Of a DNA stretch of 64,000 bases, positions 33,627 through 59,692 are shown piece by piece. A program made the position numbers and the translations under genes. The stretch is from positions 32,001-96,000 of the IMG/VR virus record IMGVR_UViG_3300042261_001186. One strand, given 5' to 3'. The stretch is from a virus. Numbering within the stretch: position 1 is the stretch's first letter; each line of letters opens with the position of its first letter. Under the pieces are notes generated by a model. It worked only from the letters and a program-made list of their open reading frames with translations. It searched no databases and was not told where the DNA came from.

Positions 33627-34577
33627 TTAATCTAATTTTTGATATGCTCCACCTGTTGAATTCAAGTGTAATCTTGGATTCCCAGGTATATAATTTCCAG
33701 CATTGCTTCCTAATCGTCCTGTAGTTGGTGTGTAGTAACTAAAAGTATCCAATGAAGGGTATTGTTTGTACATTACAGGTTTTAAGACCGTTGTAACAGA
33801 ACTATAAACAACTTTACCATCATCAACATATGTAGCATCATTCATAACTTGTTTATTCTTATATAACCATTTATGTTGTATAGCATAATCGATAAAAAGT
33901 TTTTTATCTGCATCATTTACCGTATAAATTCTATCCATATAACTTCTACCTGTAGGTTTTCTCAAGTTATGCCAAACCAATGCTCTACCTTTTATTTTTG
34001 TTCCATCATCATTTAATAAAACTAAAAGATTACATACTTCTGGATTTTTACAATAAATATCAAAATAAGGTTGAGCTTTAGCACCTTTCATACAAGAATT
34101 GTTTATGTCACCAGATGATTGGGTTGTATAATGAGAATCTAAATACCAATATCTAATTTCTTCACCAGAAACTAATTTTAAATTTGAGAATGTTTTACTC
34201 ATTTCACCTTTAAAATCATTAACAAATATTTCTATATCTTTTTGTTGGTATTTATCTGGACAAAGTTTATTAACTAATCTACCAACACCAGTTTCTTGTC
34301 TCATTCTTGAAGTAAAATTATCATTGCCTTGTCTGCCTAAAACATCATCTGCATCAGTAGTTATTTTACCAGCTGGCATAAAAGAAATTTTATCTATTTT
34401 ATCTTTAGTATCAAAACAATCTAAATATGATATATCAAATGGTTTACCTTCAAGTGCTAATATTTCATCAGAAATATTAAGATTTAAACTTTTTAAAACC
34501 TTTTTTAATTTAGGTGAAATTATCAAAGGTGCCTCTGCCGCTTCAAATAAAAATTTGTTATAACTATTTATTTTCAT
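33627..34577 (-). CDS. SCM/GRALVW/MDRIY family protein, paralog 1
   Basis: SCM, FDIY..NP, GRALVW, MDRIY, YPSLDT..YYTP.TGRL; leader ..FLFE/A. Confidence 0.75.
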   Translation of the reverse strand: MKINSYNKFLFEAAEAPLIISPKLKKVLKSLNLNISDEILALEGKPFDISYLDCFDTKDKIDKISFMPAGKITTDADDVLGRQGNDNFTSRMRQETGVGRLVNKLCPDKYQQKDIEIFVNDFKGEMSKTFSNLKLVSGEEIRYWYLDSHYTTQSSGDINNSCMKGAKAQPYFDIYCKNPEVCNLLVLLNDDGTKIKGRALVWHNLRKPTGRSYMDRIYTVNDADKKLFIDYAIQHKWLYKNKQVMNDATYVDDGKVVYSSVTTVLKPVMYKQYPSLDTFSYYTPTTGRLGSNAGNYIPGNPRLHLNSTGGAYQKLD

Positions 34578-34595
34578 TTCATCTTTATTTGTTTT

Positions 34596-34820
34596 TTATT
34601 GCCATTCGATATTTTTGTCTTTATATATTTCTAGTTTTTGTAGTTCTTCAATTATTTTATTTGTGGCATCCCTTATAGATCCTGATAACATATGGGCATT
34701 ACCATCCTCATCTGCATAAACATCAACATATGACAATATTATGTCATATATTTTAAGTCGTAAGTCATGTTCAGGAAAATCCCAATATGGTTCCAATTGT
34801 TCATTAAATTTGTCTATCAT
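34596..34820 (-). CDS. Small protein with leader and IEW tail
   Basis: MIDKFNE; ends YKDKNIEWQ. Confidence 0.55.
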   Translation of the reverse strand: MIDKFNEQLEPYWDFPEHDLRLKIYDIILSYVDVYADEDGNAHMLSGSIRDATNKIIEELQKLEIYKDKNIEWQ

Positions 34821-35878
34821 TTGTTTGTACTTAATCTTTTAAATCCTCCTCCAATTTTTTGCAATTGTAGTCTTTCAAGGGGTTCACCTGTTTTTGGATT
34901 TAATGTTGGTTTACCTCTTGAAGATGATAATCTACCTGTATATGGTGTGTAATAACAAAGAGTATCCAAATAAGGATATTTAGGATATTCTCCAGCGTGT
35001 TTCAATCTGGTTGTTATTGGTTTATCCATTATGACATCTTTAAACCAAAAAGTTGTACAATCTTTTGTTTGATGTGTTTTACAGAACCAGTTTTTTTCTT
35101 TTGCATAATTAATGAAAATATTGACATCAGATTCTTTTGTATAGTAAATTCTATCCAAGAATGTTCCCTTTGTTGGGTTTTCTGGTTTATCAACTACATA
35201 AACATCCATCCAAACTAAAGCTCTACCAACTAATAAATTATCTTTATTTAACATAACAAGCATTTTAACATTATCTGGGTTATTTACATATATGTCAAAA
35301 AAATCTTGTTTTTCAGGTTGTTTCATACATGATTTCATAAGGACTGTTCTTATGTCAGCTTGACCTTCTGGTGGAGCATCTATAACACCTGGATTAGGAT
35401 TAAAATAACTTTTTATATGATAATATTTCCTTATATCTTCACCATCCACCAAAACCATCCTATAGTTTCCTTGATCCAATGCTCCTTTGAAACTATTTCC
35501 AAATTTTTCAAGTTCACTTGTTCCAGCATAATGAGGTAATGTTCTAGCTACAAATCCACCTATTTTAATAGGTTGTCTACCATATTCACCCCAAGCTGGA
35601 CTATCTGGACCAGGACTTACCAAATCTTTTTCACTAAGTCCTACAATTCTATTTAATCTATTAGCTGGTAAGTATGATAGAACATCTACATCTTTTGTTA
35701 AATCAATGTATGAAAATGCAAATTTATCATCTTCACTTTCAGTTAAACTTAGTAATTCTCTTGATATTGGTGAATTTATAGATTTCAAAATTTGAGTCAA
35801 TTTAGGAGAAAAAAACATTTTCACTTCTTTGACGTTTATTTCGTTTTCAAATAAATAATCCTTATAATTTCTAACCAC
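34817..35878 (-). CDS. SCM/GRALVW family protein, paralog 2
   Basis: Same motifs; leader MVRNYKDYLFE/N. Confidence 0.75.
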   Translation of the reverse strand: MVRNYKDYLFENEINVKEVKMFFSPKLTQILKSINSPISRELLSLTESEDDKFAFSYIDLTKDVDVLSYLPANRLNRIVGLSEKDLVSPGPDSPAWGEYGRQPIKIGGFVARTLPHYAGTSELEKFGNSFKGALDQGNYRMVLVDGEDIRKYYHIKSYFNPNPGVIDAPPEGQADIRTVLMKSCMKQPEKQDFFDIYVNNPDNVKMLVMLNKDNLLVGRALVWMDVYVVDKPENPTKGTFLDRIYYTKESDVNIFINYAKEKNWFCKTHQTKDCTTFWFKDVIMDKPITTRLKHAGEYPKYPYLDTLCYYTPYTGRLSSSRGKPTLNPKTGEPLERLQLQKIGGGFKRLSTNK

Positions 35879-35894
35879 AATTAATAATTATTTT

Positions 35895-36935
35895 TTAGTC
35901 TACTCTTCCATAACTACCATCAGTAGCTTCTAATTTCAATCTTCTTTTCCCAGGAACTGGATTACCAGCATCAGAACCAAGTCTTCCTGTGTCTGGATTG
36001 TAATATTTCATTGTATCCATATAAGGATATCTATTGTATTCTCTAGGTGTTAGAGCTATAGCCATAGATTTTTTGACAACTTGTCCATCTTCTACATATC
36101 CTGGGTCTCTAGCACTTTGTTGATATTTATACAACCAACCTCTTTCCATAGCATATTTCTTGAATAATTCTTCATCAGATTGTTTGATTACATATATTCT
36201 ATCCATGAAAGTTTTGTCTGTTGGTTTTCTTAATCCTATCCAAACAAGAGCTCTTCCTAAGAGTTTTCCATTATTATCTAATAAAACTAATAAATTACAT
36301 TTATCAGGATTTCTAACATATATGTCAAAAAATGGTTGACAATGTGGATGCCTCATACATGAACCACCTAAACCACCACCAGCATTACCTTGTACAGCAT
36401 AACTATTTTCAAGGTAGTATTTTCTAATGTCTTCACCTTTTACTAATTTAAAATTATCAAAAATGAACAATGCTGCAATTTCAGCTTGATAAGCGTTTCC
36501 GAATTTCTGTATTGCCATATCAGTGAAATCATCAAATAATTTAGTAACAAGTTTGTTAACAGCAAATGTTTGTCTACCACTGGCTTTCCAAACTGGTGAA
36601 TCATCAGTTGGTTTTACATTAGCTTCTTCTTGAGTTTGAAAATTCATATTTCTCCAAGCTCTAGCTGCAGGCATAAAAGAAATTTCAGTGCCTTTATTTC
36701 CATCTACAATATCCAAATAAGTAAAATCAAATAATTCATCATCTGATTTAGACAATTGTATAATCCTATTTATGACGGTTTTTGTTTGAAAATCACCTGT
36801 TTTCAACATTTTTGCGAAAATACCTAACAACCTAGATGAAATAAATAATTTCATCAATTTTTTTTCACCTTTTACAAAAGCAGGTTTACCTGACATATCT
36901 GGCTCTAAATCTTCTTTTATATAATTTTTTCTCAT
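35895..36935 (-). CDS. SCM/GRALVW family protein, paralog 3
   Basis: Same motifs. Confidence 0.75.
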   Translation of the reverse strand: MRKNYIKEDLEPDMSGKPAFVKGEKKLMKLFISSRLLGIFAKMLKTGDFQTKTVINRIIQLSKSDDELFDFTYLDIVDGNKGTEISFMPAARAWRNMNFQTQEEANVKPTDDSPVWKASGRQTFAVNKLVTKLFDDFTDMAIQKFGNAYQAEIAALFIFDNFKLVKGEDIRKYYLENSYAVQGNAGGGLGGSCMRHPHCQPFFDIYVRNPDKCNLLVLLDNNGKLLGRALVWIGLRKPTDKTFMDRIYVIKQSDEELFKKYAMERGWLYKYQQSARDPGYVEDGQVVKKSMAIALTPREYNRYPYMDTMKYYNPDTGRLGSDAGNPVPGKRRLKLEATDGSYGRVD

Positions 36936-36960
36936 TTTTTATATATGTTAATTTTTATTT

Positions 36961-37938
36961 TTAATCAATATTTCCATGTCCACCATCTTGATGCCTCAAA
37001 TTATATCTTCTAAATGTCCTTGAAGGGTTGTTTGGGTCCCTTGCTGGATTTCCTGCAGTTGATGATAATCTACCAGTTGCTGGAGTATAATATTGCATTG
37101 TGTCCATATAAGGATATAATGCATGATCAACAGGTTTTACTCTAGTTGTCACAGATGTTGTTTTTCTTTGTCCGTTTAACATAAATGAATCACTTTCTTT
37201 ATATAACCAACCGTTTTCAATAGCATATTTTTTAAATAATGGTGGTATAACAGATTGTTTTCCAGATGCTGGATAAACTCTATCCATTAACCAATAAGGT
37301 TCTTTATCTTCTTTTGTATCACCACTAGGTTTTATTAAATTATTCCAAACTAAACATCTACCATAAGCTCTATCTCCACTTTCATCTAAATATACTAAAA
37401 GTCCGCATTTTTCTGGGTTTTTTGTATAAATATCAAAGAATTTTTGACATTTGTCATATCTCATACATGAACCCATTTCACCATTATATTTTTTCTCATG
37501 ATACCAAATTCTAACATCATCACCTCTCATTAATTGGAATCTTTCATCTCCCTTATCATCTAATTGTGGACGATATCTATCATAGAAAGCATCAATGTCA
37601 ACATTTGTAAATTTACCAGGAAATAATTTATTAATCATTTTTCCCCAGTTTCCACTATTTCTAAGTGATGTAGTCCAATATTCAGCAGGTGTACATCTTT
37701 TAGATCTATCTGTTGATAATGCTGATACACTTTTGCTGTCATCTTTTACAATATCTAACCAAGAAACATCACTCAAACTTTCACCTTCTGATTTCAGTAA
37801 TTCTTTCGCAACTGATGTTGTATCTATTTTTTTGAGAATAGTTTTTAATTTTGGCGAAAAAACAAGAGGACTTGTTTCTCTAACAATTTCTCCCTCATTT
37901 AAGAAACTATCAAAACCTATAATATAGTCTTTTTTCAT
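36961..37938 (-). CDS. SCM/GRCLVW family protein, paralog 4
   Basis: Same motifs; leader ..FDSFLNE/G. Confidence 0.75.
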   Translation of the reverse strand: MKKDYIIGFDSFLNEGEIVRETSPLVFSPKLKTILKKIDTTSVAKELLKSEGESLSDVSWLDIVKDDSKSVSALSTDRSKRCTPAEYWTTSLRNSGNWGKMINKLFPGKFTNVDIDAFYDRYRPQLDDKGDERFQLMRGDDVRIWYHEKKYNGEMGSCMRYDKCQKFFDIYTKNPEKCGLLVYLDESGDRAYGRCLVWNNLIKPSGDTKEDKEPYWLMDRVYPASGKQSVIPPLFKKYAIENGWLYKESDSFMLNGQRKTTSVTTRVKPVDHALYPYMDTMQYYTPATGRLSSTAGNPARDPNNPSRTFRRYNLRHQDGGHGNID

Positions 37939-41903: not shown

Positions 41904-42242
41904 TTATTTTTTTCTTTTAGATATTTTTGAAATTTTATTATTCAATTCCTCTTTTGTACAATTTTCTAATCCAATTGGTCTTTCTGTTTCATCACAATAC
42001 ATTTGAATATAATCATTATTGAATTCAACTATACTAATATTTAATTCATTTCCTTCAGAATCATATGTTCTGAAATCAAAATTTCTTTGAATATTATTAA
42101 AATCAATATGTTTAATTTCTATATCATTCATACCTTTTAATAAAGTTAAATAATCTTCAATTCCATGAAAATTCCAATTTTCTTCCCCTAAAGGATCAAC
42201 ATCTGAGTAATCTGTTTCAAACAATTTAAATTTAGTTATCAT
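41904..42242 (-). CDS. Leader + tag hypothetical protein
   Basis: MITKFKLFE/TDYSDVDPLGEENW. Confidence 0.6.
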   Translation of the reverse strand: MITKFKLFETDYSDVDPLGEENWNFHGIEDYLTLLKGMNDIEIKHIDFNNIQRNFDFRTYDSEGNELNISIVEFNNDYIQMYCDETERPIGLENCTKEELNNKISKISKRKK

Positions 42243-48330: not shown

Positions 48331-48405
48331 ATAAAAAAATTATTTTTCTTTTATATGATAAAGCTTAATGAAAGATTAATTTATTTTAGACACTCAAGTA
48401 TTTCT

Positions 48406-48759
48406 TCAGAACCATTCTATGTCTTCTTCTTTTATTATTTCTTTTGGACCACCCAATATTCTCAGTAATGCTGCTTCTGGATCTTTGTAGCATATATTGT
48501 CTATCATAACATAACCATTAACATCATTGGCACATGCTTGACAAACAAAGAAAACAGCATATCTCTCCTCGGTTTTTGATATATCTTCTTTTACTTGCTC
48601 AATCCAATTATCCCCTGGTTCATCTTTTTCTATGGAAACTTGCATATTTGCTGAATCATAATATATTAACAAGCAATTGTCTTCACCACACTCATTACAC
48701 CTAGAATCTTTGAAAATCAATCCTTCATTTATGAAACTTGAGTATTTCTTTAGTACCAT
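48406..48759 (-). CDS. Zinc-ribbon protein with leader and EEDIEWF tail
   Basis: CNEC..CQAC. Confidence 0.62.
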   Translation of the reverse strand: MVLKKYSSFINEGLIFKDSRCNECGEDNCLLIYYDSANMQVSIEKDEPGDNWIEQVKEDISKTEERYAVFFVCQACANDVNGYVMIDNICYKDPEAALLRILGGPKEIIKEEDIEWF

Positions 48760-49127
48760 TCTATATTTTCATCTTTTATTATTTCTGGTGGTTCGGACAT
48801 TGCTATTATTTTCTTAAGAGCTTTGTATGAATCTTTATATCTTTTACCATCAATCACAACACTTCCACTTGATTCATCTTCACATTCATTGCAAGCATAA
48901 AAAGTATTGTAATTGTTGTTAGTCTCAATATCATTTTTTATGTCATTTAAGGTGATATTTTTCATAGATTGACCATTTGAATTCAAAATTGTACCATCTG
49001 ATTCTATATCGATCTCACCAAGTTTTGTTGACCTATATATTATTACTATAGTATTATTTTCACCACAAACAGAACATTGAGATTTAAATAATCTACTCTC
49101 ATTCAAAAATTCTAGGAAATTCCTCAT
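48750..49127 (-). CDS. Zinc-ribbon protein, paralog of 48406, with DENIEWY tail
   Basis: CSVC..CNEC; G.V.ID...YKD...AL. Confidence 0.62.
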   Translation of the reverse strand: MRNFLEFLNESRLFKSQCSVCGENNTIVIIYRSTKLGEIDIESDGTILNSNGQSMKNITLNDIKNDIETNNNYNTFYACNECEDESSGSVVIDGKRYKDSYKALKKIIAMSEPPEIIKDENIEWY

Positions 49128-49150
49128 AACTTAATTTTCGTCTATATTCA

Positions 49151-49861
49151 TTATCTACCACGGGGACCTACTTTACCTAAATATTTATTAAATCTCCATT
49201 GACGTTTACCAATTTGAACATCATGATTTTGTAAATATTTTAATACCTTTTCAGCAATTTCATCATCTTCTTTTGGTGGATCAGATTTAAATAATCTACC
49301 TTCATTTATAAATGTTGTATAATTCTTAATTACTCTTTCTTCTATTTTCTGAGGTTGGACTTTTTGTACTTGTGGTTCTTCTTCAGGTGATTGTCCTTGA
49401 ATTTTTTGTTCCATACCTCTATTGTTAGGTATTCCTTGAGGTTGGTTTTGTGTTTGTGGAATAACTTTTTGAAGGGTTGTATCAACAACTTCTTTAGATA
49501 AATCAACATCAAATATTTCACCACCCCTTATTTCACCACCTTCTATTTTACCTCCTATGAATCTACCTCCAAAAATAATTCCATTTTTAAATATACCATT
49601 ATACCAAGTACCATTATACCAGACACCACCTTCCCAAGTACCATATTTCCATTGACCATCTCTGAAAACACCATATACCCAAGTACCATTAAAGAAAACA
49701 CCAGCATTAAACACTAATGTGTTTTTAGTTATTTCTAATCTAACATTTTCAACTTCACAATCTAGGAACCAATCAAATTTACATTTAATAAGTATTTCCT
49801 CAATCTTTGCTGTTTCAGTATAGATTTTGTCTTGATATTTCAGTTCTTTATAACGATTCAT
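49151..49861 (-). CDS. Pentapeptide-repeat protein related to the N-terminus of 39091..41199
   Basis: K..WFL...V.N..I..LV...G; GxWxx repeats; internal leader IKNYTTFINE/G. Confidence 0.62.
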   Translation of the reverse strand: MNRYKELKYQDKIYTETAKIEEILIKCKFDWFLDCEVENVRLEITKNTLVFNAGVFFNGTWVYGVFRDGQWKYGTWEGGVWYNGTWYNGIFKNGIIFGGRFIGGKIEGGEIRGGEIFDVDLSKEVVDTTLQKVIPQTQNQPQGIPNNRGMEQKIQGQSPEEEPQVQKVQPQKIEERVIKNYTTFINEGRLFKSDPPKEDDEIAEKVLKYLQNHDVQIGKRQWRFNKYLGKVGPRGR

Positions 49862-49888
49862 AATCCTATATATTAATTTTTTAATTCA

Positions 49889-50767
49889 TTAAATAAATGG
49901 TGCACAAGTATATCTTTTCATTGGTAATCTATTATAACCAACTTTATCTCTAACATTTTCATAATTGGACAGAAAATATTTGTTACCTTCTGTGTAGAAA
50001 TACCTCATAGTATCCATATATGGGTTGAATCTTGGATGACCATAATTTCTTTTCACATAAACTTTGAATATATTATTAGGTGCCCAACCTTGTTTATCAT
50101 CATACATCAACCATTTGTTTTGTCTGGCATAATTAATGAACATTTGCTGAACAGCATAATTAGAATAGTAAATCCTATCCATATAAGTTCTTCCTGCTGG
50201 TTCATCCAATTTCCATACTATGGCCCTACCCAATAGTTTATTATTGTCATCTGTCAATATCAACAAATTTATCTTATCTGGATTTTCTGCATAAATTCTA
50301 AATTTTAATTGTGAGAAAATTCCCCTCATACAAGAACTATGTAATGGTGATCCTCTATCTCTATTTGTGTAATTCCATCCTAGATACCATCTATTTATAG
50401 CTAAACCATCAACTAATCTAAACCTACTATTTTCTTTATATTGTTTATAAAAACCTTTGTACCTATTAACACACATTTCAACATTATGTTCATTAAAAAC
50501 ATCTTTTGGAAAAAAGGTTTCTAGGGAATTTAAAAATCTCCCATATTTTATTTCTTGTCTAGCATTAGGTTTATCAACATGAATATAAGATATTACATCA
50601 TCTCTATCTGTGATTTTAAGGTCATATATCTTTCCAGTTTTACCAGCTAATTTTCTCAATTCATAAATTTTTGAGAAAACATTGTCCCAACTGACTTTAT
50701 CAAAAGTGACTTCATGAAATAGGTCTTCTTTTGGTTTTCTTTCGAATGTTCTTTTTACTTCTTCCAT
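49889..50767 (-). CDS. SCM/GRAIVW family protein, paralog 5
   Basis: SSCMR, IYAENP, GRAIVW, YMDRIY, PYMDT. Confidence 0.75.
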   Translation of the reverse strand: MEEVKRTFERKPKEDLFHEVTFDKVSWDNVFSKIYELRKLAGKTGKIYDLKITDRDDVISYIHVDKPNARQEIKYGRFLNSLETFFPKDVFNEHNVEMCVNRYKGFYKQYKENSRFRLVDGLAINRWYLGWNYTNRDRGSPLHSSCMRGIFSQLKFRIYAENPDKINLLILTDDNNKLLGRAIVWKLDEPAGRTYMDRIYYSNYAVQQMFINYARQNKWLMYDDKQGWAPNNIFKVYVKRNYGHPRFNPYMDTMRYFYTEGNKYFLSNYENVRDKVGYNRLPMKRYTCAPFI

Positions 50768-50838
50768 GAAACTATATATTAAATAAAAAATTCAAACTTT
50801 ATATTACATATCATATAAAATAAAATAAAATCATATTT

Positions 50839-51798
50839 ATGCTCGAAGGTAAAAGATTTCAAAATAATGAAAATGGTGATATAGTAGAGGTTATAGCAGA
50901 TACTGGAATGTTCTACAACCTAAGTAATGGTTCAAATATTAAAAGAGATATATTTTTTCAAAAATATTCAGAAATGGTAGATCCAACTAGTTTTTTCCAA
51001 AAACAAACGGTTGCAGGTCTTTCAAATTTGGCTGAACAATTCAAAAATTTAGATTCTAGGAATGCTGTAGATGGTGATATGCCACCAACAGTTAGACATA
51101 TATCAGAATCAACAGGTAATTATTCACCACCAACACCTGAACAAGACAGACAAGAAATGATTAGGAGATATAATGAAAATCAAGCTAAAAAAGATTTATC
51201 ACAATATAAAGTATTTGATAATGAAGATGAAGCAGCATCTGATTTTGAGAGAAGACAAAAAGAAATTCAACAAAATCAAATACAACAAAGAAATAAATCT
51301 TTAAGACAACAAAAATTAGAAGAAGAAGAGAGATTTTTAAGGGGAGAACAAAACATTCAAAATGTAGAATATACAGAACCAACACCACAAGAATTTACAC
51401 AACCTGCTTATGTATCTAAAGATGAAGAAGCTTATAGATTTTTCAAATCTTTTAAAAGAGTGTATCCTGTAAAGTTGTCCATAGATTTTGATGAAAAAAT
51501 TGCAGAACCTAATTTTTTAAAAATGATGGTTACTAATATGGAAGCTGATATTATTCAATATTATACAAAAGAAATTATGAATAGAATTCATAATGATCCT
51601 GGTTATTTGGAAACAAAAATATATGAAAAACTTAGGTCTATAGTTTTTGAAGAAGAACAAAAAAAACCTAAAAGAACTATTAAACCTAAAGTTGTTAAAG
51701 AAGAAGTTAAAGTTCCAACTAAAAAACAACCTAAGAAAAGAGTTATACCTTCTGTTCCACCTAAGGATAGAGAGAGATTACAAGAGGGGGTTGAATAA
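50839..51798 (+). CDS. Hypothetical protein
   Basis: 319-aa ORF. Confidence 0.6.
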   Translation: MLEGKRFQNNENGDIVEVIADTGMFYNLSNGSNIKRDIFFQKYSEMVDPTSFFQKQTVAGLSNLAEQFKNLDSRNAVDGDMPPTVRHISESTGNYSPPTPEQDRQEMIRRYNENQAKKDLSQYKVFDNEDEAASDFERRQKEIQQNQIQQRNKSLRQQKLEEEERFLRGEQNIQNVEYTEPTPQEFTQPAYVSKDEEAYRFFKSFKRVYPVKLSIDFDEKIAEPNFLKMMVTNMEADIIQYYTKEIMNRIHNDPGYLETKIYEKLRSIVFEEEQKKPKRTIKPKVVKEEVKVPTKKQPKKRVIPSVPPKDRERLQEGVE

Positions 51799-51816
51799 AA
51801 AATAATATATAAAATT

Positions 51817-52188
51817 ATGATAGATAAATTACTTGAAGACGCCTTTAAAATATTTGGGTGGGAAGTTGAATATTTCATTACAGAACAAAGTAAAGAAGAA
51901 ACATTAGATAATTATAAATTAACAAATATAGTTGATAAGGTATGTATTAAAGTTTTAATTGATGATAATATAAATAATGTAAAAAACTTTAAAATAAAAA
52001 TTTTAAAGAGTACATTTTTAGAAAACAAAAAACCTAGTGTAAATGACATAATTTATATACCAGGTGTCAAAAGACTTTATTATGTTGAAAAAGTATTGGA
52101 TGAAGATGAAAATATGATGTCAGGAGGAATTTGCTTTTTTAATGTTGAATTGTCTCAATATGAAATTAAATTTAAAATAAATGGATAA
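51817..52188 (+). CDS. Small neck/head-closure (gp14-like) protein
   Basis: G.EV.Y; KP.VNDIIYIP...RLY.V..V; F.VEL..YE. Confidence 0.45.
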   Translation: MIDKLLEDAFKIFGWEVEYFITEQSKEETLDNYKLTNIVDKVCIKVLIDDNINNVKNFKIKILKSTFLENKKPSVNDIIYIPGVKRLYYVEKVLDEDENMMSGGICFFNVELSQYEIKFKING

Positions 52189-52531
52189 AAAATTTATAGA
52201 ACAAGCTAAGAACATTAGAAGAGAATACATTAAAAGTGTTAATGACATATTGTCTTGTGAGGATAAAATAAATTATTATAAAACTAAATTATCTGAAGTT
52301 CAACTTAATATGCAAAGTACTAGTAAAGATGATATACGTATTAAAATGATGGATATAGAGAAAAATATAAAAGTTATTGAAAATCTAATGAATCCTCATA
52401 CAAATAAAGTAAAATCTCTTGAAAAAGAAGCTGATATTTTGTTTGAAAATATAATGGAAAGACATCCAAATTATACTAAGGAAGATATTCAAAATGAACT
52501 TATTCCACACCTAAAAGAAATCAAATTTTAA
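52181..52531 (+). CDS. Coiled-coil hypothetical protein
   Basis: Heptad-like ORF. Confidence 0.55.
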   Translation: MDKKFIEQAKNIRREYIKSVNDILSCEDKINYYKTKLSEVQLNMQSTSKDDIRIKMMDIEKNIKVIENLMNPHTNKVKSLEKEADILFENIMERHPNYTKEDIQNELIPHLKEIKF

Positions 52532-52855
52532 ATGGAAGAATTAGACTTAACCTCTTATGATGATTTGATGAAATCATATCACCTTGTAAGAAAAATATAT
52601 GAAATTCATAATAAATTCAAAGATTTGGAAGATGATCCAATAGAATATAAATCTATTAATGTTAATTTAGATTTACTTGATATAATAATGGAAGTAAATT
52701 TTGTATTTTCACCAAAAATTGGTATATTGAGTAAGATTGATAAAGTAACAAAAGTGGGTGTATTACTTAATATTGAGGTTTTCTTGGAACCAGGTTTAGA
52801 GAATAAAGTAGTTTTTAATGGAAGAGAAAACTATGAATTAATAGTTAAAATATAA
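52532..52855 (+). CDS. Hypothetical protein resembling an isolated capsid A-domain
   Basis: By-eye similarity to the gp23 C-terminal region in this window. Confidence 0.45.
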   Translation: MEELDLTSYDDLMKSYHLVRKIYEIHNKFKDLEDDPIEYKSINVNLDLLDIIMEVNFVFSPKIGILSKIDKVTKVGVLLNIEVFLEPGLENKVVFNGRENYELIVKI

Positions 52856-52909
52856 TTTTTTATATCAATAATTATGTTTATATTTGTATAATAAATAAAA
52901 TTTTTCAAA

Positions 52910-53248
52910 ATGGCAACATTGTTCAGACCAGTTGGGTTAAAAGAACTTCTTCTGATAAAAAATTCTGGCTGGACAAAATTTCCACCTAGATTACCAGAAC
53001 AGCCAATATTTTATCCTGTCTTAAATGAAGAATATGCTACACAAATAACTAAAGATTGGAATGTTAAATCAACTGGTTTTGGATTTGTCACAAAATTCAA
53101 TATTGATGATGAATATTTTAATACTTTTGAAATACACAATGTTGGGGCAAAAATTCATAATGAACTTTGGGTTCCAGCTAGACAACTTAATGAATTTAAT
53201 AAACATATAATAGGAAAAATAGAAATCACTAAATCTTTTAAAAAATGA
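52910..53248 (+). CDS. Conserved protein often labelled ADP-ribosylation/crystallin J1 (possible ART fold)
   Basis: LFRPVG..EL..FPPRLPEQPIFYPVLNEEYA.QI..DWN..HNELWVPA. Confidence 0.7.
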   Translation: MATLFRPVGLKELLLIKNSGWTKFPPRLPEQPIFYPVLNEEYATQITKDWNVKSTGFGFVTKFNIDDEYFNTFEIHNVGAKIHNELWVPARQLNEFNKHIIGKIEITKSFKK

Positions 53249-53787
53249 AATTCTTCGATAGATTTATTTTAGCACCTTATATAATGAAGGCTACATCCCT
53301 TATAGGTGTTCATCGTAGATGTGGTGGAAATCAATTCAGACACCAATTTGCAACACTTGGAATTTTATTGGACTATAAATATTTTGATGATAGTGTCTTA
53401 CTCAAGGCTTCACTCATTCACGATTTACTTGAAGATTGGGGTGATGAACAAATTGAAGCAATAAGAAACCTTGATGAAGATGGATACCAAGTTATTGAAT
53501 TGGTTAAAGAAGTCACCAAGAGTAAAGATGAACCTAAAGAAGTGTATCTTAAAAGAATACTTGATAGTGGTTCAGATAGAGCTAAAATCCTTAAATGTGC
53601 AGACAGAATAAGTAATTTAACAGACTTACATTTAGATACACACACATCAGGAAAAATAGCATTATATTTAGATAATACTGAAAAATTTATTATTCCAATG
53701 GCATTAGCTGTATCTAATATAGATTTTGTGAAAGAACTTGCAGATTTAATTATAGAAAGAAGATTATTAATTGAAACCAAAAAATAA
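53245..53787 (+). CDS. HD-domain hydrolase, Mesh1/SpoT-like
   Basis: R..G..F.H, LIHDLLED, V.EVT, K.ADRISNL. Confidence 0.8.
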   Translation: MKFFDRFILAPYIMKATSLIGVHRRCGGNQFRHQFATLGILLDYKYFDDSVLLKASLIHDLLEDWGDEQIEAIRNLDEDGYQVIELVKEVTKSKDEPKEVYLKRILDSGSDRAKILKCADRISNLTDLHLDTHTSGKIALYLDNTEKFIIPMALAVSNIDFVKELADLIIERRLLIETKK

Positions 53788-53793
53788 ATAGAT

Positions 53794-54012
53794 ATGAAAA
53801 ACAAATATTTTGAAAATTGGACACCTAATGTTATAAATAGAAATTATAATGAAATGTATGTATCATATTTGAAAAGTAAAATAAATAATTATCCTGAAAT
53901 TAAATTAAAATATGATAATATTGATTTAGATTCAATGAATAAAGATGATATTAGTATTGAAGCCAAGAAAATAGATGAAATGATAACTGAAATTAAAAAT
54001 AAAAACAAATGA
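53794..54012 (+). CDS. Hypothetical protein
   Basis: ORF in operon. Confidence 0.5.
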   Translation: MKNKYFENWTPNVINRNYNEMYVSYLKSKINNYPEIKLKYDNIDLDSMNKDDISIEAKKIDEMITEIKNKNK

Positions 54013-54458
54013 TTGAAAACACAATTAACACAGACATCAAGAATGCAATGATGGAAAAAAATGCAATGAGACTAGAAGCTCTCAGAACCATCAAAACAGC
54101 AATTCAATTAGAAAAAGCTAAAGAAGGAACTGAATTGACTGATGAACAAGTTATTAAAATTATACAAAAACTAGTCAGTCAAAGAACAGAATCAGCAGTT
54201 CAATATGCAAGTGCTGACAGAGTAGACTTAGTTGAACATGAATTGGATTTGGTTACGGTTTTCAAACTTTACTTACCAGAACAAATGTCTGAAGCTGAAA
54301 TCAATGCTAAAGTAAAGGAAATCATTACTAATGTTGGAGCAACATCTGTAAGGGATATGGGTAAAGTTATGTCTATTGTAAATAAAGATTTGGCTGGAAA
54401 AGTAGATGCTAAAGCAGTAGGACAATTAGTAAAACAATTATTAACCTTAAAAACTTAA
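54009..54458 (+). CDS. GatB/YqeY domain protein
   Basis: DIK.AM, LR.IK, QR.ES..QY, YLPEQMSE, DMGKVM. Confidence 0.9.
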   Translation: MIENTINTDIKNAMMEKNAMRLEALRTIKTAIQLEKAKEGTELTDEQVIKIIQKLVSQRTESAVQYASADRVDLVEHELDLVTVFKLYLPEQMSEAEINAKVKEIITNVGATSVRDMGKVMSIVNKDLAGKVDAKAVGQLVKQLLTLKT

Positions 54459-54462
54459 AATT

Positions 54463-54690
54463 ATGATTTTATTTATTGCAGAAGTAATATTGACCATTTT
54501 TGCATGGAGAAATGGTTGGAAATGGTTGGCTTTGATACCAATGGGTGTTATTTTCTTAATTGGTATGATTATTGGTTCTAGTGTGGCTATGTCAGGTGGG
54601 TCAATGGACAATTTAGGAGGTCTCTTTATGTTCGATCTTATGGCTATTGTGGTTTTGATCATTATGGTATGTAAGAAAAGAAAAATTTGA
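54463..54690 (+). CDS. Small membrane protein
   Basis: Three hydrophobic segments. Confidence 0.55.
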   Translation: MILFIAEVILTIFAWRNGWKWLALIPMGVIFLIGMIIGSSVAMSGGSMDNLGGLFMFDLMAIVVLIIMVCKKRKI

Positions 54691-54729
54691 TAATTCAAAA
54701 AATTGTTGTATCTTTGTTAAAATTATAAA

Positions 54730-54885
54730 ATGAAAAATATAAAACTTTTATTGGCTGGATTAGTGATAGGATTTGTGGTTTCTGAAGCTGTCGTTCAATA
54801 TAAAAAAATGAAAAATGAAAAAGAAATTGAAGACAAGGAAATCAGTGAATTACTCAAGTTGAAAAGAAAATACCCTAAAGTTTAA
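54730..54885 (+). CDS. 51-aa single-TM protein not in ORF track
   Basis: MKNIKLLLAGLVIGFVVSE..KYPKV*; TAnnTTTG upstream. Confidence 0.5.
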   Translation: MKNIKLLLAGLVIGFVVSEAVVQYKKMKNEKEIEDKEISELLKLKRKYPKV

Positions 54886-54942
54886 ACTTTTTGGAAATAT
54901 GTGACTATTAAGAGATAATATATAGTAATATATTGTTCTTTG

Positions 54943-55112
54943 AAAATATTTAAAAATTGTGAAAACGAAAGAACCCAAGACCCCATCGCATAGGGGAGAA
55001 CGCAACCTTAGGAAAAACCGAATGGTGTCGGTAGTCAGAAATGACGAAACTTAAGCAGGCGGATTGAAATGAAGATCCTTAATATTATGTGCGAACTTTT
55101 TTTAAATATTTT
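54943..55112 (+). ncRNA. Candidate structured ncRNA of unknown family
   Basis: GC/CpG-enriched non-coding island closed by a 14-bp inverted repeat; internal hairpins; same 18-nt leader as tmRNA. Confidence 0.55.
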
Positions 55113-55132
55113 TAATTGTTCTTTGAAAATAT

Positions 55133-55529
55133 GGGCTCGTATGGCTTAGACAGCGATGCGAAATAATGAATAAGCAAGTATCGTACTTTCTGTGATACGA
55201 TTAATAAATTGGCAGGAGACAAATAAATGCAAAAACATCAAAAATAGTGTCTGAAGATATGATGAGTATCTTCACTAGCGTGACAGGAAAGGTTTCTGAA
55301 ACCTTTTACGCGAAAGAAAGCGCCGAATTGGCCTTGGCATAACAGGAAAAAATCAGATACTCTGAATATTGGAGAGTTTTAACAGAGGATAAACTAAATT
55401 AAATAATTGATGAATTGACAATTTTTCAGAATACAAATTGTATATGAGTTGATACAGAAATTATCAAATAAACTTGTAGAAATTTTTTAAAATCATTGTT
55501 GGAAGCGGGTTCGAATCCCGCCGAGTCCA
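55133..55529 (+). ncRNA. ssrA: tmRNA
   Basis: Acceptor GGGCTCG/CGAGTCC with G3-U70 and discriminator A; T-arm GCGGGTTCGAATCCCGC; tag ORF ending ELALA*. Confidence 0.92.
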
Positions 55530-55636
55530 CAAAAGGAATGACAATTCTGGTTGTGATGTACACATAGATCAGTCAAATCATTCGCGTTTTAAAACGAAAC
55601 CGTGAACATAGCCAAGATAAGGAACGGATAAAATTT

Positions 55637-55662
55637 AACCAATCATTTTGATTGGTTTTTTT
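55637..55662 (+). terminator. Intrinsic terminator after the RNA cluster
   Basis: AACCAATCA-TTT-TGATTGGTTTTTTT. Confidence 0.75.
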
Positions 55663-55797
55663 ATTTGGAAACATTTAATTAAATTTGCAATGTAGAATTA
55701 AAAACAAGGATGTATATTTTCAAGAAATTATTCTTAACAACTACATTACCATATGCAAATTCAATATAAAGATGAAAATATAGAATGGGTTTAAATT

Positions 55798-56094
55798 ATG
55801 TTCAAGAATATTTTAATAACTTTTTTAAAAGATAAGTACCCTAATTTTGATTTCATAATTTTCCCTTGGTCAAAGGATGATATGGATATCATAGAAAAAA
55901 AAGGACTTGGTAGAATGGATCCAAGGTACACAATTAATATGTATTTGGAGCATGCTAGTCAGGTTTATGCTCGTTCATCTAGAGAACAACAGACTGAAAT
56001 TTTGACACTGGCTGTGAATAGAGTGGATAAATTCATAAAAATGAAATGTAAAATAATTGAAGAATATAAAGATGAAAACATAGAATGGGTATAA
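55798..56094 (+). CDS. Hypothetical protein with DENIEWV tail
   Basis: ORF track. Confidence 0.6.
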   Translation: MFKNILITFLKDKYPNFDFIIFPWSKDDMDIIEKKGLGRMDPRYTINMYLEHASQVYARSSREQQTEILTLAVNRVDKFIKMKCKIIEEYKDENIEWV

Positions 56095-56141
56095 ATTATG
56101 TTTAAAGACGATGAATACAAGGATGAAAATATAGAATGGGT

Positions 56142-56447
56142 ATGAAAGAGGAATTCCTTAAAAAACTGAAAGAAAAATATGGGTTTGAAAAAATCTCACT
56201 TGATGGTAATGACTTAGTTATAAACAAGAACCCTAAAGCATTGAATGACATTAAAATATGGGTGGATTTGGATTTTGCTAAATATATGATGGAATTGACT
56301 GGTTCCAGCATGGAAATGGAAATAAAATGTCAAATGATACATGTTGATTGGGAACTCAAAAGGATGGATTATTTTTCAGAAAATCCTAAAAGTTGGTGGG
56401 TTGACAAAAAAGATATTTATGAAGATGAAAACATAGAATGGGTATGA
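56142..56447 (+). CDS. Hypothetical protein with DENIEWV tail
   Basis: ATGA overlap with the preceding mini-ORF; alternative start 56136. Confidence 0.6.
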   Translation: MKEEFLKKLKEKYGFEKISLDGNDLVINKNPKALNDIKIWVDLDFAKYMMELTGSSMEMEIKCQMIHVDWELKRMDYFSENPKSWWVDKKDIYEDENIEWV

Positions 56448-56548
56448 AAATAGCGGATTATTTGTATAAAAAATACTCAAACATCAGTTTCTATATCGTA
56501 GGAAACCGCCACATAAAAGAGTAGGAATAAAAAATAAATTTAAATTAT

Positions 56549-57364
56549 ATGGCAAAAAAGAGTGGAAAAGATTTCCAAAGAGAAGTCTTAAATGACCCTG
56601 AATGGGTAAAAGAACATGGTGATGTTGATAAATTTGAGGATATAGATTCGAAAGTTAATACCGAATATTCCTCTAAAAGAAAAGAAAAAACATCACTTAT
56701 AAACAAAAATAGATCTGGTAAATATCAATATGATTCTAGGTCAGCATTAAAAGGTGATACATTAATGTATAAAGGAAAAAAGAAAATAGTTTCTGAATAT
56801 AAAAATTATGATAGTGTAAGAAGCTTATTTAAACCACCTTCCATTTATGATATGAGTAAGTTTATGAAAACTAATGACTCAAACATTAGATATGCATCTG
56901 AACAAAAATTAGATTTTATATCTAATGATACTAAAAATTATTATGATAATTTTTTCAATCAAATCTTCAATGGTCCTAAAATTCACACATTAGAAACAAC
57001 TAATGAACCTATTCCAATTGGTTTTCTGGATTATGATTCTTTTTTAGAATTAATATGTTCTATTGAATTAGGGTTTGCATATAAAGAATTTGGTGTTGAA
57101 AAAATGAAAAATTTTGTTTGTTTGGACAATACAAATAAAAAATATATGAAAGATCTTGATTTAACAAAAGTCATAAACAAAGGTGATATAGTTAAATTAA
57201 GTATTTGGATTGATCCAACAACTAGATATTCTTACCTAATTTACACTTGTAATGATGAACCTATTTACATTCTTTCACAAAGAAAAAATGTTGCAAAAGC
57301 AAATTGTGCCTTTATTCCAAATTCTAAATTTGTAGTAAATGAAAAATCTAGAAAATCCATCTAA
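56549..57364 (+). CDS. Hypothetical protein, possible nuclease partner of the methyltransferase
   Basis: Convergent with the MTase; no motif firmly recognised. Confidence 0.45.
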   Translation: MAKKSGKDFQREVLNDPEWVKEHGDVDKFEDIDSKVNTEYSSKRKEKTSLINKNRSGKYQYDSRSALKGDTLMYKGKKKIVSEYKNYDSVRSLFKPPSIYDMSKFMKTNDSNIRYASEQKLDFISNDTKNYYDNFFNQIFNGPKIHTLETTNEPIPIGFLDYDSFLELICSIELGFAYKEFGVEKMKNFVCLDNTNKKYMKDLDLTKVINKGDIVKLSIWIDPTTRYSYLIYTCNDEPIYILSQRKNVAKANCAFIPNSKFVVNEKSRKSI

Positions 57365-57366
57365 AC

Positions 57367-57395
57367 AAAAAACCCCCTTAATTGGGGGTTTTTTT
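57367..57395. terminator. Bidirectional terminator
   Basis: AAAAAACCCCC-TTAATT-GGGGGTTTTTTT. Confidence 0.8.
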
Positions 57396-58494
57396 ATTTC
57401 ACCAAATTCTTGAATATCGCTTCTAAAACATTAACAACTATTGAATTTCCTGCCAATTTTATTAATGCACTATCACTCATAGTCCCTTCAACTTTATTAA
57501 AATCACTATCTGTGAACCCCATTAATTTCCAACATTCTCTTGGTATAAGTTGTCTTACTTCACCATTTTCATAAACCTTTATTCTAGATAATGCACCAGT
57601 TGCAGTTATAGTTGGAGATATACTATCAGTATGATAAACCTTATTTTCACTTGCAAAATTTGTATAACCAACTAAATCAAATCCTCTTATACCATTCTTA
57701 GTTTTTTTAGTTTCTATTACACTTGGATAATATTTCTTAAAATCAAAATAATATTTCTTATCAACATTTTTAGACATAATATCACCAATAGTTAAATTAG
57801 TTAATTCATTTTGTTCTGGAATAATATATTCTTGATCATCTATTATAGAAACCATATAAGCTCTTTCTCTATTCTGTGGTATATCAAAATAAGAAGCTTT
57901 CAATTTGAAATCATAATTCCTATATCCTAATTTTGTGAGATTCTCTTTCCAAGTTTCAAATCCTGTTTTGTGTTTATCACTCATTATTGATGCGACATTT
58001 TCCATTAATAAATATTTTGGTAATCTATTTTCAACTTTTAATTCATTAAGTAGTCTATCTACTTGCCACAATAAAGAACTTGATTTACCTTCAAATAAAC
58101 CTCTACCACTTCCTTGGTTACTTAAATCCTGACATGGAAATGAATATGTTAATAAATCATGGTCTGGCATATCAGTTGATTTGAAATCTAATATGGAACC
58201 AAGATTGTTTATGTTTTTATTAGAGACATAAAGTTTCTTTGCTTTTTCAAAATTCATTTTATCAGTATTTGTAGGTGTTTTAGTATCTAAAGAAAATGTA
58301 AATTTTTTAAGATAATCATATATTTCTTCTTTTGAATCTGTAGTTTCTTCATATGAATGATGGACAAGGTTATATGACATTATGGCATTGACATCCCATT
58401 CTGATACTGCAACTACTTCAAAGTCAGCTTTTATATTTTTAAGTGCTTTGTGTTGAGAACCAATACCAGCAAATAATTCAATTACTTTTATCAT
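57394..58494 (-). CDS. C5-cytosine DNA methyltransferase, M.SssI/M.MpeI-like (probable CpG specificity)
   Basis: FAGIG, DLLTYSFPCQDLS, LPKYLLMENV, QNRER, GNSI; target recognition region KKTK..GY..F.SE..VY..PTITATGA.SRIK. Confidence 0.9.
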   Translation of the reverse strand: MIKVIELFAGIGSQHKALKNIKADFEVVAVSEWDVNAIMSYNLVHHSYEETTDSKEEIYDYLKKFTFSLDTKTPTNTDKMNFEKAKKLYVSNKNINNLGSILDFKSTDMPDHDLLTYSFPCQDLSNQGSGRGLFEGKSSSLLWQVDRLLNELKVENRLPKYLLMENVASIMSDKHKTGFETWKENLTKLGYRNYDFKLKASYFDIPQNRERAYMVSIIDDQEYIIPEQNELTNLTIGDIMSKNVDKKYYFDFKKYYPSVIETKKTKNGIRGFDLVGYTNFASENKVYHTDSISPTITATGALSRIKVYENGEVRQLIPRECWKLMGFTDSDFNKVEGTMSDSALIKLAGNSIVVNVLEAIFKNLVK

Positions 58495-58551
58495 AAAATA
58501 TTTTTTATTTTATATAAATAATTTCAAGAGGAAAGTTTAATATATAGTGAT

Positions 58552-58818
58552 ATGATTAAACTATTTGAGGAATTTAATAAAAAGAAAGAAATAGACCCTT
58601 CAGATGCTTCTAAATGGAAAGTTGGAGATACAATTATTTGTACAAACAAAGGTAGAGGTAAAAGATTAGAAATAGGAAAAGAATATAAGATATTTGACAT
58701 AACTAAACCTTCTGGACAAGCAGTAATGATAAAAGGAGATTATACTTATTATAGTACAAAATATTTTATTAAGAAATTCAAAGATAAAATAAAAGAAGAA
58801 GACATAGAATGGTTCTAA
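58552..58818 (+). CDS. Leader + SH3-like domain + EEDIEWF tail
   Basis: MIKLFEEF; WKVGDTIIC; IKEEDIEWF*. Confidence 0.62.
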   Translation: MIKLFEEFNKKKEIDPSDASKWKVGDTIICTNKGRGKRLEIGKEYKIFDITKPSGQAVMIKGDYTYYSTKYFIKKFKDKIKEEDIEWF

Positions 58819-59348
58819 ATTATAAAAAATATAATGAATCTATTTACGAAGATTTTAAAATTGGTGATAGAGTCATCACGAAAGATTTATGGAAATTTAG
58901 TAATAAGTATGCAACTATTGTAAGGATAGATCATGGTGGTGATAAATATTGTATAGAATTTGATGAATTTATTGATGGACATAGTTGTTCAGGTAAGGGG
59001 AAAAAAGGACATTGTACTAATGCAAGTATTAAAAATTTAATTAAAATTGAAAAAGAAGAACCTATAAAAGAAGAAGATATAGAATGGTTTGAATCACTTA
59101 AACCAATGAATGAAAGTTTTGAGATAGGTGACATAGTGGTTTGCTTGGAGACAAAGAATGACAATAAAGGTAGGTTGAATTTCTTGGAAGGTAAAGAATA
59201 TCAATTGTTAAGGGGAATGGGAGACAAATATTTGTTTATTCAAGGGGAACAGAGAAACCTTGAATTATTTAGAAAAGATACTATACACAAATATTTTAAA
59301 AAAGTTGATATAAGTAATATAAAAGAAGAAGATATAGAATGGTTCTAA
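58809..59348 (+). CDS. Two-module protein, each module SH3-like and ending EEDIEWF
   Basis: YNE/S..FKIGD..EEDIEWFE/S..MNE/SFEIGD..EEDIEWF*. Confidence 0.65.
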   Translation: MVLNYKKYNESIYEDFKIGDRVITKDLWKFSNKYATIVRIDHGGDKYCIEFDEFIDGHSCSGKGKKGHCTNASIKNLIKIEKEEPIKEEDIEWFESLKPMNESFEIGDIVVCLETKNDNKGRLNFLEGKEYQLLRGMGDKYLFIQGEQRNLELFRKDTIHKYFKKVDISNIKEEDIEWF

Positions 59349-59692
59349 ATTATAAACAATTTAATGAAGGTAGATTTAATCCTTTTAGAAAAAAAATAAA
59401 TAATTTTATACCAAAACCACCAAAGTTTGTTAAACATTCAGATATAGATCCATATGGGGAAGAAGATTGGAATGATGGTAAATATCAAATGGGTGAAGAT
59501 CTTGTTGCTGTTAGAAATTTATATTATACCAAAGATGATGCCCCATTAATAACTAAAAACAAAGTATATAAAATCATAGATAAATTTGTGGAATATGAAC
59601 ATATAAGATATACTTTTATAAGTGATAAGGGGATAGAACACACATTGACAGAGGATTCAATGAAATTGAATTTTAAAAAGATACCACTTTAA
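59339..59692 (+). CDS. Leader + tag + SH3-like domain
   Basis: MVLNYKQFNE/G; HSDIDPYGEEDW. Confidence 0.62.
   Translation: MVLNYKQFNEGRFNPFRKKINNFIPKPPKFVKHSDIDPYGEEDWNDGKYQMGEDLVAVRNLYYTKDDAPLITKNKVYKIIDKFVEYEHIRYTFISDKGIEHTLTEDSMKLNFKKIPL

Follow-up and report, generated by a model that had tools for sequence, protein, structure and literature searches.

The DNA considered here is a stretch of 64,000 nucleotides (nt), referred to as the window, which corresponds to bases 32001-96000 of the IMG/VR virus record IMGVR_UViG_3300042261_001186, a viral contig of 130,397 bp with 28.6% G+C that IMG/VR and CheckV classify as linear and 100% complete. The subject is a short acidic peptide anchored by a tryptophan, here called the I-E-W tail, and the set of small phage genes that carry it. 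In the window, [YI]-x-[ED]-x-[DN]-I-E-W-x-stop ends nine ORFs and one further copy lies in frame; the whole contig has 21 terminal copies of [DN]IEW-x-stop and five in-frame copies, while the chance expectation for terminal copies in the contig has a mean of 0.05 and a maximum of 1 (60 first-order Markov randomisations). IEWx forms the C-terminus of 19 of the 320 contig open reading frames (ORFs) of at least 45 amino acids (aa), and about one gene in nine of the phage ends in the acidic Trp tail. All tail copies listed in an earlier note, which was made from the letters of the window, were found to be present; the coordinates given there are ends or starts of ORFs rather than positions of the motif.

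The genes of this set can be described as cassettes that consist of a head beginning M-V-L-x-[YF] and often containing F-[IL]-N-E, a small variable body, and the I-E-W tail. On the minus strand, a 74-aa ORF (34596..34820) ends in YKDKNIEWQ (34596-34625); the ATG contained in its Glu-Trp codons opens only 6 codons, and the next gene starts 19 nt downstream. A 125-aa ORF with two CxxC pairs, which is Zn-ribbon-like (48750..49127, minus strand), ends in IKDENIEWY (48750-48779) and overlaps by 10 nt its 117-aa paralogue (48406..48759, minus strand), which starts with MVLKKY at the upstream Glu-Trp (E-W) ATG and ends in IKEEDIEWF (48406-48435). With tails trimmed, the two proteins are 31.8% identical over 110 aligned columns. 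The E-W ATG of the 48406 tail opens only a remnant head of 9 codons, MVLKKYLSV (48386..48415, minus strand), the decayed beginning of one more cassette that has been lost at the array end.

On the plus strand, an array begins just past the transfer-messenger RNA (tmRNA) gene with a mini-ORF of 13 aa, MQIQYKDENIEWV (55753..55794), which is tail only (YKDENIEWV, 55765-55794) and is followed 3 nt after its stop by the next ATG. A 98-aa ORF (55798..56094, tail YKDENIEWV at 56065-56094) precedes a second mini-ORF of 15 aa, MFKDDEYKDENIEWV (56098..56145), which has a head and a tail (YKDENIEWV, 56116-56145) without a body, and whose E-W ATG starts the next gene, a 103-aa ORF with the start MGMK (56136..56447, tail YEDENIEWV at 56418-56447). 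The two mini-ORFs that the earlier note had described are thus real; with 13 and 15 codons they hold little beyond the tail, and they stand directly before genes. A 28-codon ORF, MGMKIADYLYKKY... (56438..56524, plus strand), is opened by the last of these tails and looks like a truncated cassette at the array end. Further along the plus strand, an 88-aa ORF with an SH3/KOW-like body (58552..58818, tail IKEEDIEWF at 58789-58818) is followed by a 179-aa two-barrel ORF (58809..59348), which starts with MVLNYK at the preceding E-W ATG, carries the in-frame linker IKEEDIEWF-ES (59064-59096, motif copy 59064-59090) between its parts, and ends in IKEEDIEWF (59319-59348). The E-W ATG of this terminal tail gives the MVLNYK start of a 117-aa ORF (59339..59692, plus strand) of a family that bears another tag, DP..EE.W, described below, so that the E-W junction also feeds genes of that family.

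Twelve further terminal copies lie just beyond the window at contig 99566-106050. One cassette of this second array (L135:3346-3698, contig 100346-100698) is apparently broken: its E-W ATG opens only 26 codons, which resemble the N-termini of neighbouring paralogues, and the 47-aa tailed ORF after them is read in a different frame, so that a frameshift, a pseudogene or a fault in the assembly are all conceivable. Four in-frame linkers are contained in a 430-aa ORF (contig 14037-15329, minus strand), of the form Y-x-[ED]-E-D-I-[EQK]-W-[FY]-E-S between SH3-like bodies. Fused, split, emptied and truncated cassettes coexist, and the idea of a strictly C-terminal tail fails, since the same peptide also serves as an in-frame inter-domain linker that continues with E-S or E-N.

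The full conserved peptide, hydrophobic-E-x-[YI]-[KDE]-[ED]-x-[DN]-I-E-W-hydrophobic, is longer than the motif first proposed. The stop lies exactly one codon past the tryptophan in 21/21 terminal copies, and 20 of them close with F, Y, V, L, M or I. Stop-codon recoding was considered and dropped, as TAA, TGA and TAG are all found after the tail. At the DNA level, the conserved block around the E-W ATG extends from -26 to +9 and comprises about 35 nt.

The dipeptide E-W is spelled GAATGG in 25 of the 26 copies, and the ATG contained in it lies in the -1 frame. An ORF of 83-186 codons begins at this ATG in 14 of the 21 terminal copies, compared with 3 of the 65 other GAATGG sites in the contig, and the downstream proteins begin MVLNYK, MVLKKY, MGMK, MVMTK, MAMTK, MDVG or MALI. 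Among the outside homologues described below, four of the five single-body tail proteins start with MVL, as would result from an overlap of this kind read as ATG-GTN-YTA. All of the ten-nt gene overlaps in the contig (12/12, each between two co-directed genes) are tail junctions with the form ATG-NNNN-TRA. The isoleucine codon is ATA in 24/26 copies and ATT in none of the 26, for genome usages of 0.54 and 0.38, respectively, and the choice of ATA places an A at position -3 of the next start. Adenine at -3 was reported to raise initiation in Flavobacterium johnsoniae and in Escherichia coli (PMC6847099). The third base of the [DN] codon, at position -6, is C in 12/26 copies, compared with a usage of about 0.14. 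A weak 5-bp hairpin, CAUAG / YUAUG, is possible around the ATG in some copies, with no clear correlation with C at -6. In folding calculations, energies were 0 to -4.2 kcal/mol for 9 of 10 junction RNAs and -9 for the tenth, and z scores relative to shuffled sequences ranged from -1.9 to +1.0; a structured RNA element at the junction was dropped, as none of the 10 stands out from its shuffles. The E-W codons, GA(A TG)G, are shown to hold the start of the next cassette within a fixed 10-nt overlap; position -3 is A, and the lead is rich in A and G and unstructured. A programmed frameshift joining the cassettes was also rejected: no slippery site was seen by inspection, and it is an indel that distinguishes the fused from the split forms.

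In the regions upstream of 165 crudely called genes of the contig, A accounts for 55-70% of the bases at -10 to -19 and G is scarce; GGAG precedes 11 of the 165. Such a pattern has been described for Bacteroidia, which do not use Shine-Dalgarno (SD) sites (PMC6847099), and Bacteroidia ribosomes have been reported to be blind to SD (PMC7797042, PMC9976891). At eight junctions of one array (L135:2550-7610, contig 99566-104593) the tail is encoded by AAAGAGGAG[GA]A, with two GAG codons in each, although the usage of GAG is 0.095; this stretch, GAGGAG[GA]A, ends 7 nt before the ATG and resembles the SD sequence AGGAGG, whereas the other genes of the phage are without such motifs. Other junction copies have GATGAAAA or GAAGAAGA at this site. 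No bS21 gene was found in the contig, and the idea that a phage bS21 frees the anti-SD was dropped for that reason.

Several observations show that the peptide is under selection at the protein level, as an acidic, Trp-anchored sequence that ends single-body proteins and joins bodies in frame. The five in-frame linkers serve no downstream start (the -1-frame ATG at 59079 opens a two-codon frame), and they nonetheless keep the Y, the acidic run, the I, the W and the aromatic residue. When 1.84 billion representatives were searched with a profile built from the SH3-like cassettes, 229 proteins matched at E<=1e-3, many of which have 4-17 repeats of the SH3-like body. The best 150 of the 229 were examined, and four of these were set aside as known, namely P0002 and P0003 from the contig itself, P0004 from the related IMG/VR fragment G002 and P0006 from the metagenome contig L057. 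Among the remaining 146 of the best 150, the motif is present in 8 and absent from 138. It serves as an in-frame linker, up to five times and continued by E-S or E-N, in P0018, P0025 and P0141; the exact C-terminus EEDIEWF ends P0018, P0026, P0030, P0036, P0053 and P0141, and the variant EEDIIWF ends P0148. In all five homologue pairs compared, the motif is more conserved than the rest of the protein (84 vs 56, 78 vs 64, 89 vs 44, 100 vs 41 and 89 vs 38% identity). The non-SH3 ORF 56136-56447 has an outside orthologue, P0159, which keeps the tail as YEEENIEWL with conservative changes, so that the tail persists in outside proteins, in this orthologue as well as in the eight homologues.

The nucleotide pattern agrees with this. 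The logo of the 21 junctions has a 3-nt periodicity with free third positions at -12, -15 and -18, and at -12, the middle of the would-be SD sequence, all four bases occur. Position +5, a silent third position in the downstream frame, is T in 19/21 junctions, which yields the hydrophobic last residue of the upstream protein. Only 10 of the approximately 35 conserved nt are common with the next gene. Taken together, the linkers, the homologues, the codon pattern and the 10 of about 35 shared nt indicate that the overlap with the next start does not wholly explain the tail. It explains part of it, as the use of the ATG in 14/21 copies and the synonymous bias show, but linkers and homologues keep the peptide in its own right.

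The bodies attached to the tail are of several types, including KOW/SH3-like barrels, Zn-ribbon-like proteins with CxxC pairs, alpha/beta and helical proteins. Among 19 tail proteins with the last 10 residues trimmed, BLASTP found only four pairs with E<0.01, which bears out, at the level of BLASTP, the claim of unrelated domains. Ten tail proteins matched no Pfam or PHROGs family above the cut-offs, and a homologue search with ORFs 58552 and 48406 returned only the queries themselves. The scarcity of BLASTP pairs and of family matches implies that the tail is far better conserved than the bodies that carry it. An AlphaFold2 model of 58809-59090, built from an eight-row homologue alignment, has a mean predicted local distance difference test score (pLDDT) of 72, with values of 70-87 in a barrel of five strands, under 50 in the head (residues 1-13) and about 60 in the tail (residues 81-94), where one turn is the only regular structure; this fits a predicted role of the tail as a flexible handle or linker and not as part of the fold. 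The tail is, as had been supposed, acidic with an aromatic or hydrophobic end and portable on dissimilar bodies, and in the one usable model it is flexible. A Foldseek search with this model gave weak similarity to KOW, Spt5, NusG, PWWP and Tudor barrels (E 3e-3 to 5e-2; template modelling (TM) score 0.45-0.53) and no match at E<=1e-3, and a structure search of a protein atlas gave viral clusters and KOW-like rows below 0.5 TM only.

On balance, the reading that we consider somewhat more probable than its negation is that the tail serves as the motif that marks the C-terminal boundary of modular cassettes and at the same time as a translational-coupling joint, in a T4-like freshwater phage. 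The constraints at the protein level and at the start level make one stretch of about 35 nt both a protein motif and a gene-to-gene joint. Ribosomes that terminate on one cassette would restart on the next by termination-reinitiation, so that chains of small proteins could be produced together in a host that, judged from the upstream regions of the phage, would make no use of SD sites. The peptide itself would most likely be a docking or linker handle for a common putative partner, a role that is plausible from the sequence pattern, and the common joint would let cassettes duplicate, fuse, split and swap bodies. Exchange of cassettes at the seam is suggested by 29 identical nt between junctions of unrelated genes 10 kb apart. 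The proposal of a second address label is thus retained in part: a portable peptide selected at the protein level is present, but it is not simply a free label, as the tail doubles as a start joint. The further suggestions of mimicry of single-stranded DNA-binding protein (SSB), a degron or an ejection signal are guesses.

Rather different accounts emphasize one side of this dual pattern. The tail could be a pure nucleic-acid element, an initiation region (in some copies with an SD-like AGGAGG) together with the next start, and the peptide a functionless by-product; the frequent use of the E-W ATG, the identity of all ten-nt overlaps with tail junctions, the ATA bias that supplies A at -3, the two rare GAG codons in each of the eight AAAGAGGAG[GA]A copies, the tail-only mini-ORFs and a tail remnant in L057 that lacks a start of its own but precedes a gene are all in its favour. 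We nevertheless regard it as unlikely, since the start-less linkers are conserved more strongly than any other part of the multi-body proteins, both in this phage and in P0018, P0025 and P0141, variation follows the 3-nt rhythm of the upstream frame with all four bases at -12, position +5 is conserved though silent downstream, the other starts of the contig are A-rich and G-poor, and Bacteroidia ribosomes are reported to be SD-blind. Conversely, a pure protein tag, whether an address label, hub-binding motif, degron, or packaging or ejection signal, would make the overlap an accident of E-W always spelling ATG. The linkers, the homologues, P0159 and the codon pattern speak for such a tag, as do the unrelated bodies, the separation from the DP..EE.W tag, which never occurs in the same ORF (0/36), and the acidic and aromatic character that recalls the partner-recruiting tip DFDDDIPF of E. 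coli SSB (PMC3936761). Its probability is low, although slightly above that of the nucleic-acid element: the geometry is strict and repeated, with the stop one codon past W and a 10-nt overlap, synonymous choice is biased toward the start (ATA), the ATG serves as a start much more frequently than the one in the other GAATGG sites does, and the motif is also internal, which means that a free C-terminus is not required.

The nucleotide identity between junctions could instead be kept for its own sake, as 25-45 nt of short homology for the duplication, deletion and exchange of cassettes, like the boundary elements of the hyperplastic regions of T4-type phages. The Zn-ribbon-like 48406 and the SH3-like 58552, which lie on opposite strands 10 kb apart, agree over 29 nt in which the rare codons GAC and TTC occur; two junctions of the second array have 27 identical nt in common, NAC codons are overrepresented (12/26 vs usage 0.14), the head-plus-tail mini-ORFs resemble emptied cassettes, and fused and split versions are both present. 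Yet the peptide is kept in outside homologues with less than 50% identity while the acidic third positions vary freely, so that maintenance of homology alone fails to explain the amino-acid pattern, and no rearranged cassette order was reliably shown, the sides of the joints comprising 20-48 letters at 80% likeness; recombination as the main explanation is therefore improbable. In window 58790-59350, contigs of two runs, one of them possibly from the source sample, join junction copies to each other, twice by skipping 201 or 473 nt and once backwards from 59349 to 58791, and these joins, with sides of 24-47 letters, could be variants of cassette number or an effect of repeats on assembly. The least probable of the accounts, and one to which we give very little weight, is a processing site, at which a protease, perhaps that of the phage head, would cleave the linkers behind W-[FY] and so trim multi-body proteins to single-body ends. 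Single-body ORFs indeed stop exactly at the position of the linker W-[FY] | E-[SN], the linker is better conserved than the domains, and the window contains a weak Peptidase_S77 match (E 5e-4, below the curated cut-off). T4-type head protease sites have the form [LI]-x-E, however, which the motif does not consistently fit, and in L057 and the similar contig L045 the tail extends 4-6 residues past W.

The combined boundary motif and coupling joint has its own difficulties. No long ORF begins at the E-W ATG in 7 of the 21 terminal copies, so the start role is not universal; the ten-nt overlaps differ from the classic -4 and -1 geometry described in PMC10666635, and the coupling that we propose is deduced from gene geometry. 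The copies are paralogues, so counts over them are not independent events, and the putative flexibility is read from one model of moderate confidence (pLDDT 72, 8-row alignment). In relatives the evidence is uneven. The helicase of the phage is 64% identical to that of the 735-kb phage LR756501, which we take to be the 735-kb genome of the huge-phage paper, and 63-64% identical to those of the IMG/VR fragments G001 and G002; with LR745206, these are the nearest available relatives by helicase, and all four lack the tail. LR756501 and LR745206 have 8 and 3 matches to [DN]IEW, none of which is followed by x-stop and all of which stand in unrelated contexts; G001 and G002 gave no match, nor does any other tail recur in them. 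In G002, the protein homologous to the 58809 barrel has the ending I-D-E-K-P-G-K-I-K-W-Y, so that I-x-W-aromatic is older and the acidic run is lineage-specific.

Support from an independent lineage comes from the metagenome contigs L057 and L045 (28-30% G+C), which contain arrays of 60-80-aa ORFs with Cys-rich or SH3-like bodies and tails of the form [KE]-E-[ED]-[DY]-I-E-W-[IV]-A-E-K-x-stop. Here the next ORF (MDSRE.., MDSRK.., MDSGEK..) also starts at the E-W ATG, with an overlap of 22 nt, and the isoleucine codon is ATA in 5 of the 6 copies in which the search pattern left it unfixed. GCT, the one synonymous alanine codon that would give a stop in the downstream frame, was found only in the two copies without a following ORF, and one L057 tail remnant still precedes a gene although it lacks a start codon itself. 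These E-W starts indicate that the pairing of peptide and next start is older than this phage. At least 119 loci with at least 122 matches were obtained in the metagenome pattern scan, nearly all in unrelated proteins or non-coding frames, and L057 and L045 are the only arrays among the matches listed. Scans by pattern gave two single matches and no further arrays in IMG/VR (21-nt pattern), and again two single matches and no further arrays in the GTDB genomes; the L057-type pattern gave 120 single matches, of which none is a real tail. An IMG/VR scan with P0036 returned nothing, and one with the alignment A3 returned only G002 and a similar contig.

Some further loci are worth recording. In L001, an IMG/VR contig of 105.6 kb from an unrelated-looking phage, a 213-aa ORF (L001:3826, minus strand) ends in KEEDIEWLNRNLK, and its E-W ATG opens a 192-aa ORF that begins MAEQKFKIGDRV and has an SH3-like body of the same kind. 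In the metagenome contigs L020, L024, L041 and L051 (33-39% G+C) a separate family of 140-189 aa ends in GEW[LK]EFAGKEEDIEW[RK] followed by 0-3 residues, and in L041 the E-W ATG opens a 103-aa ORF. A full-text literature search for the tail and DP-tag strings, which did not cover supplements, found no phage paper.

The I-E-W junction can be compared with three known systems. Coupled overlapping gene pairs (PMC6728339, PMC10666635) are likewise co-directed, with stop and start overlapping, the last codons of the upstream gene forming the lead of the downstream gene, and with chains of such pairs. In E. coli, the last 15 nt of the upstream gene suffice for termination-reinitiation, as do short overlaps with short 3' parts of the upstream gene (PMC10666635). 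Coupled pairs usually have overlaps of 4 or 1 nt with diverse sequences, whereas here a fixed 10 nt lies inside a conserved 12-residue peptide; moreover, the present junction is reused at 12 gene pairs and as an in-frame linker, and its coupling is predicted from sequence geometry. Tips of the SSB type (E. coli SSB DFDDDIPF and T7 gp2.5; PMC3936761, PMC10359462) resemble the tail in the acidic run, the Ile, the aromatic C-terminal end, the small fold of nucleic-acid-binding type, the flexibility and the portability. The 21 terminal copies have such an acidic run, with a hydrophobic or aromatic end in 20 of them, yet five copies are internal, and the tail differs in its invariant Trp and in its dozens of carriers rather than one hub protein. 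The bodies also lack the oligonucleotide/oligosaccharide-binding (OB) fold of SSB: the best, though weak, matches of the 58809 barrel are barrels of the KOW/Tudor type, and other bodies have CxxC pairs or are helical. The promoter and stem-loop (PeSL) cassettes of T4-type phages (PMC2839356, PMC4122927) are similar in that repeated short boundaries flank small, fast-evolving genes with possible shuffling. A PeSL is an intergenic promoter with a stem-loop, whereas the junction here lies within coding sequence on both sides, with weak RNA folds and no stable stem-loop.

A second tag, DP[YFL]xEE.W, is found in 36 ORFs of the contig and lies within 14 residues of the C-terminus in 17 of them; in the others it stands N-terminally after the head or links parts of the protein in frame, with as many as 6 linkers in one protein. 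Window examples are the ORFs at 42242 (minus strand), 46407 and 59339 (both plus strand), and 60002, 61134 and 63870 (all minus strand), and there are many more in the contig. With strict motifs, the I-E-W tail is present in none of the 36 DP-tag ORFs, as the earlier note had maintained; a degenerate DP-like stretch, EIDPSDASKW, is present in ORF 58552-58818, which has the I-E-W tail. Four DP tails overlap the next start. In the relatives, DP tags are C-terminal in five proteins of G001 and four of G002, so that the DP tag is older and more widespread than the I-E-W tail. A tally of the approximately 180 genes gives 21 ORFs with a terminal I-E-W tail, one more with in-frame copies only and 36 with the DP tag, and 43 of the 180 called genes have a Trp within the last five residues. 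It is conceivable, albeit doubtful, that the two tags form a phage-wide addressing system of two portable acidic-Trp handles on about one third of the genes, which would dock unrelated proteins to one or two hubs (for instance inside the capsid, at the machinery of replication or translation, or on a host factor), the junction producing the chains in fixed proportion.

The remaining genes of the window place the phage among the T4-type viruses. The T4-type head set includes a Gp23-like capsid protein, a Gp20 portal and the weak prohead-protease match mentioned above, the Peptidase_S77 hit at E 5e-4; parts of a family-B polymerase, RtcB, a RimK-like ATP-grasp ligase (10747-12159, plus strand) and a ClpA/B-like double-AAA (two-ring) ATPase (18662-20866, plus strand) are also encoded. 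In known systems, RimK-like ligases and ClpA/B-like ATPases have protein termini or tails as substrates. A tmRNA gene was located at 55133-55532 (plus strand) by ARAGORN and Rfam (RF00023, 69.9 bits); its predicted tag peptide, GKNQIL, is unusual, and some 220 nt separate it from the first tail-only mini-ORF downstream. A common C-terminal region, ..SCM..FFDIY..NP..GRALVW..MDRIY.., is found in five paralogues of 292-354 aa, at 33627-37938 and 49889-50767 (all minus strand), which have no Pfam family; a 770-aa protein of G002 begins with the same head, MIKNYNSFLNE, and carries this region after several SH3-like bodies. Identical contigs were recovered in a second, independent lake-water study. 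According to the huge-phage paper, its genomes larger than 634 kb fall in the Mahaphage clade and have Bacteroidetes as predicted hosts (PMC7162821).

If the proposed architecture is correct, about 35 nt would suffice, in a host without SD sites, to end a small protein with a handle, to start the next one and to provide a seam for the rearrangement of cassettes. For practical work, the starts of genes in such arrays would be annotated at M-V-L, M-G-M or M-V-M within the preceding E-W, and the 12-residue peptide would serve as a bait in pull-down experiments that could open up dozens of proteins at once. For the biology of the phage, this arrangement would explain how large sets of tiny, fast-evolving genes continue to be expressed.

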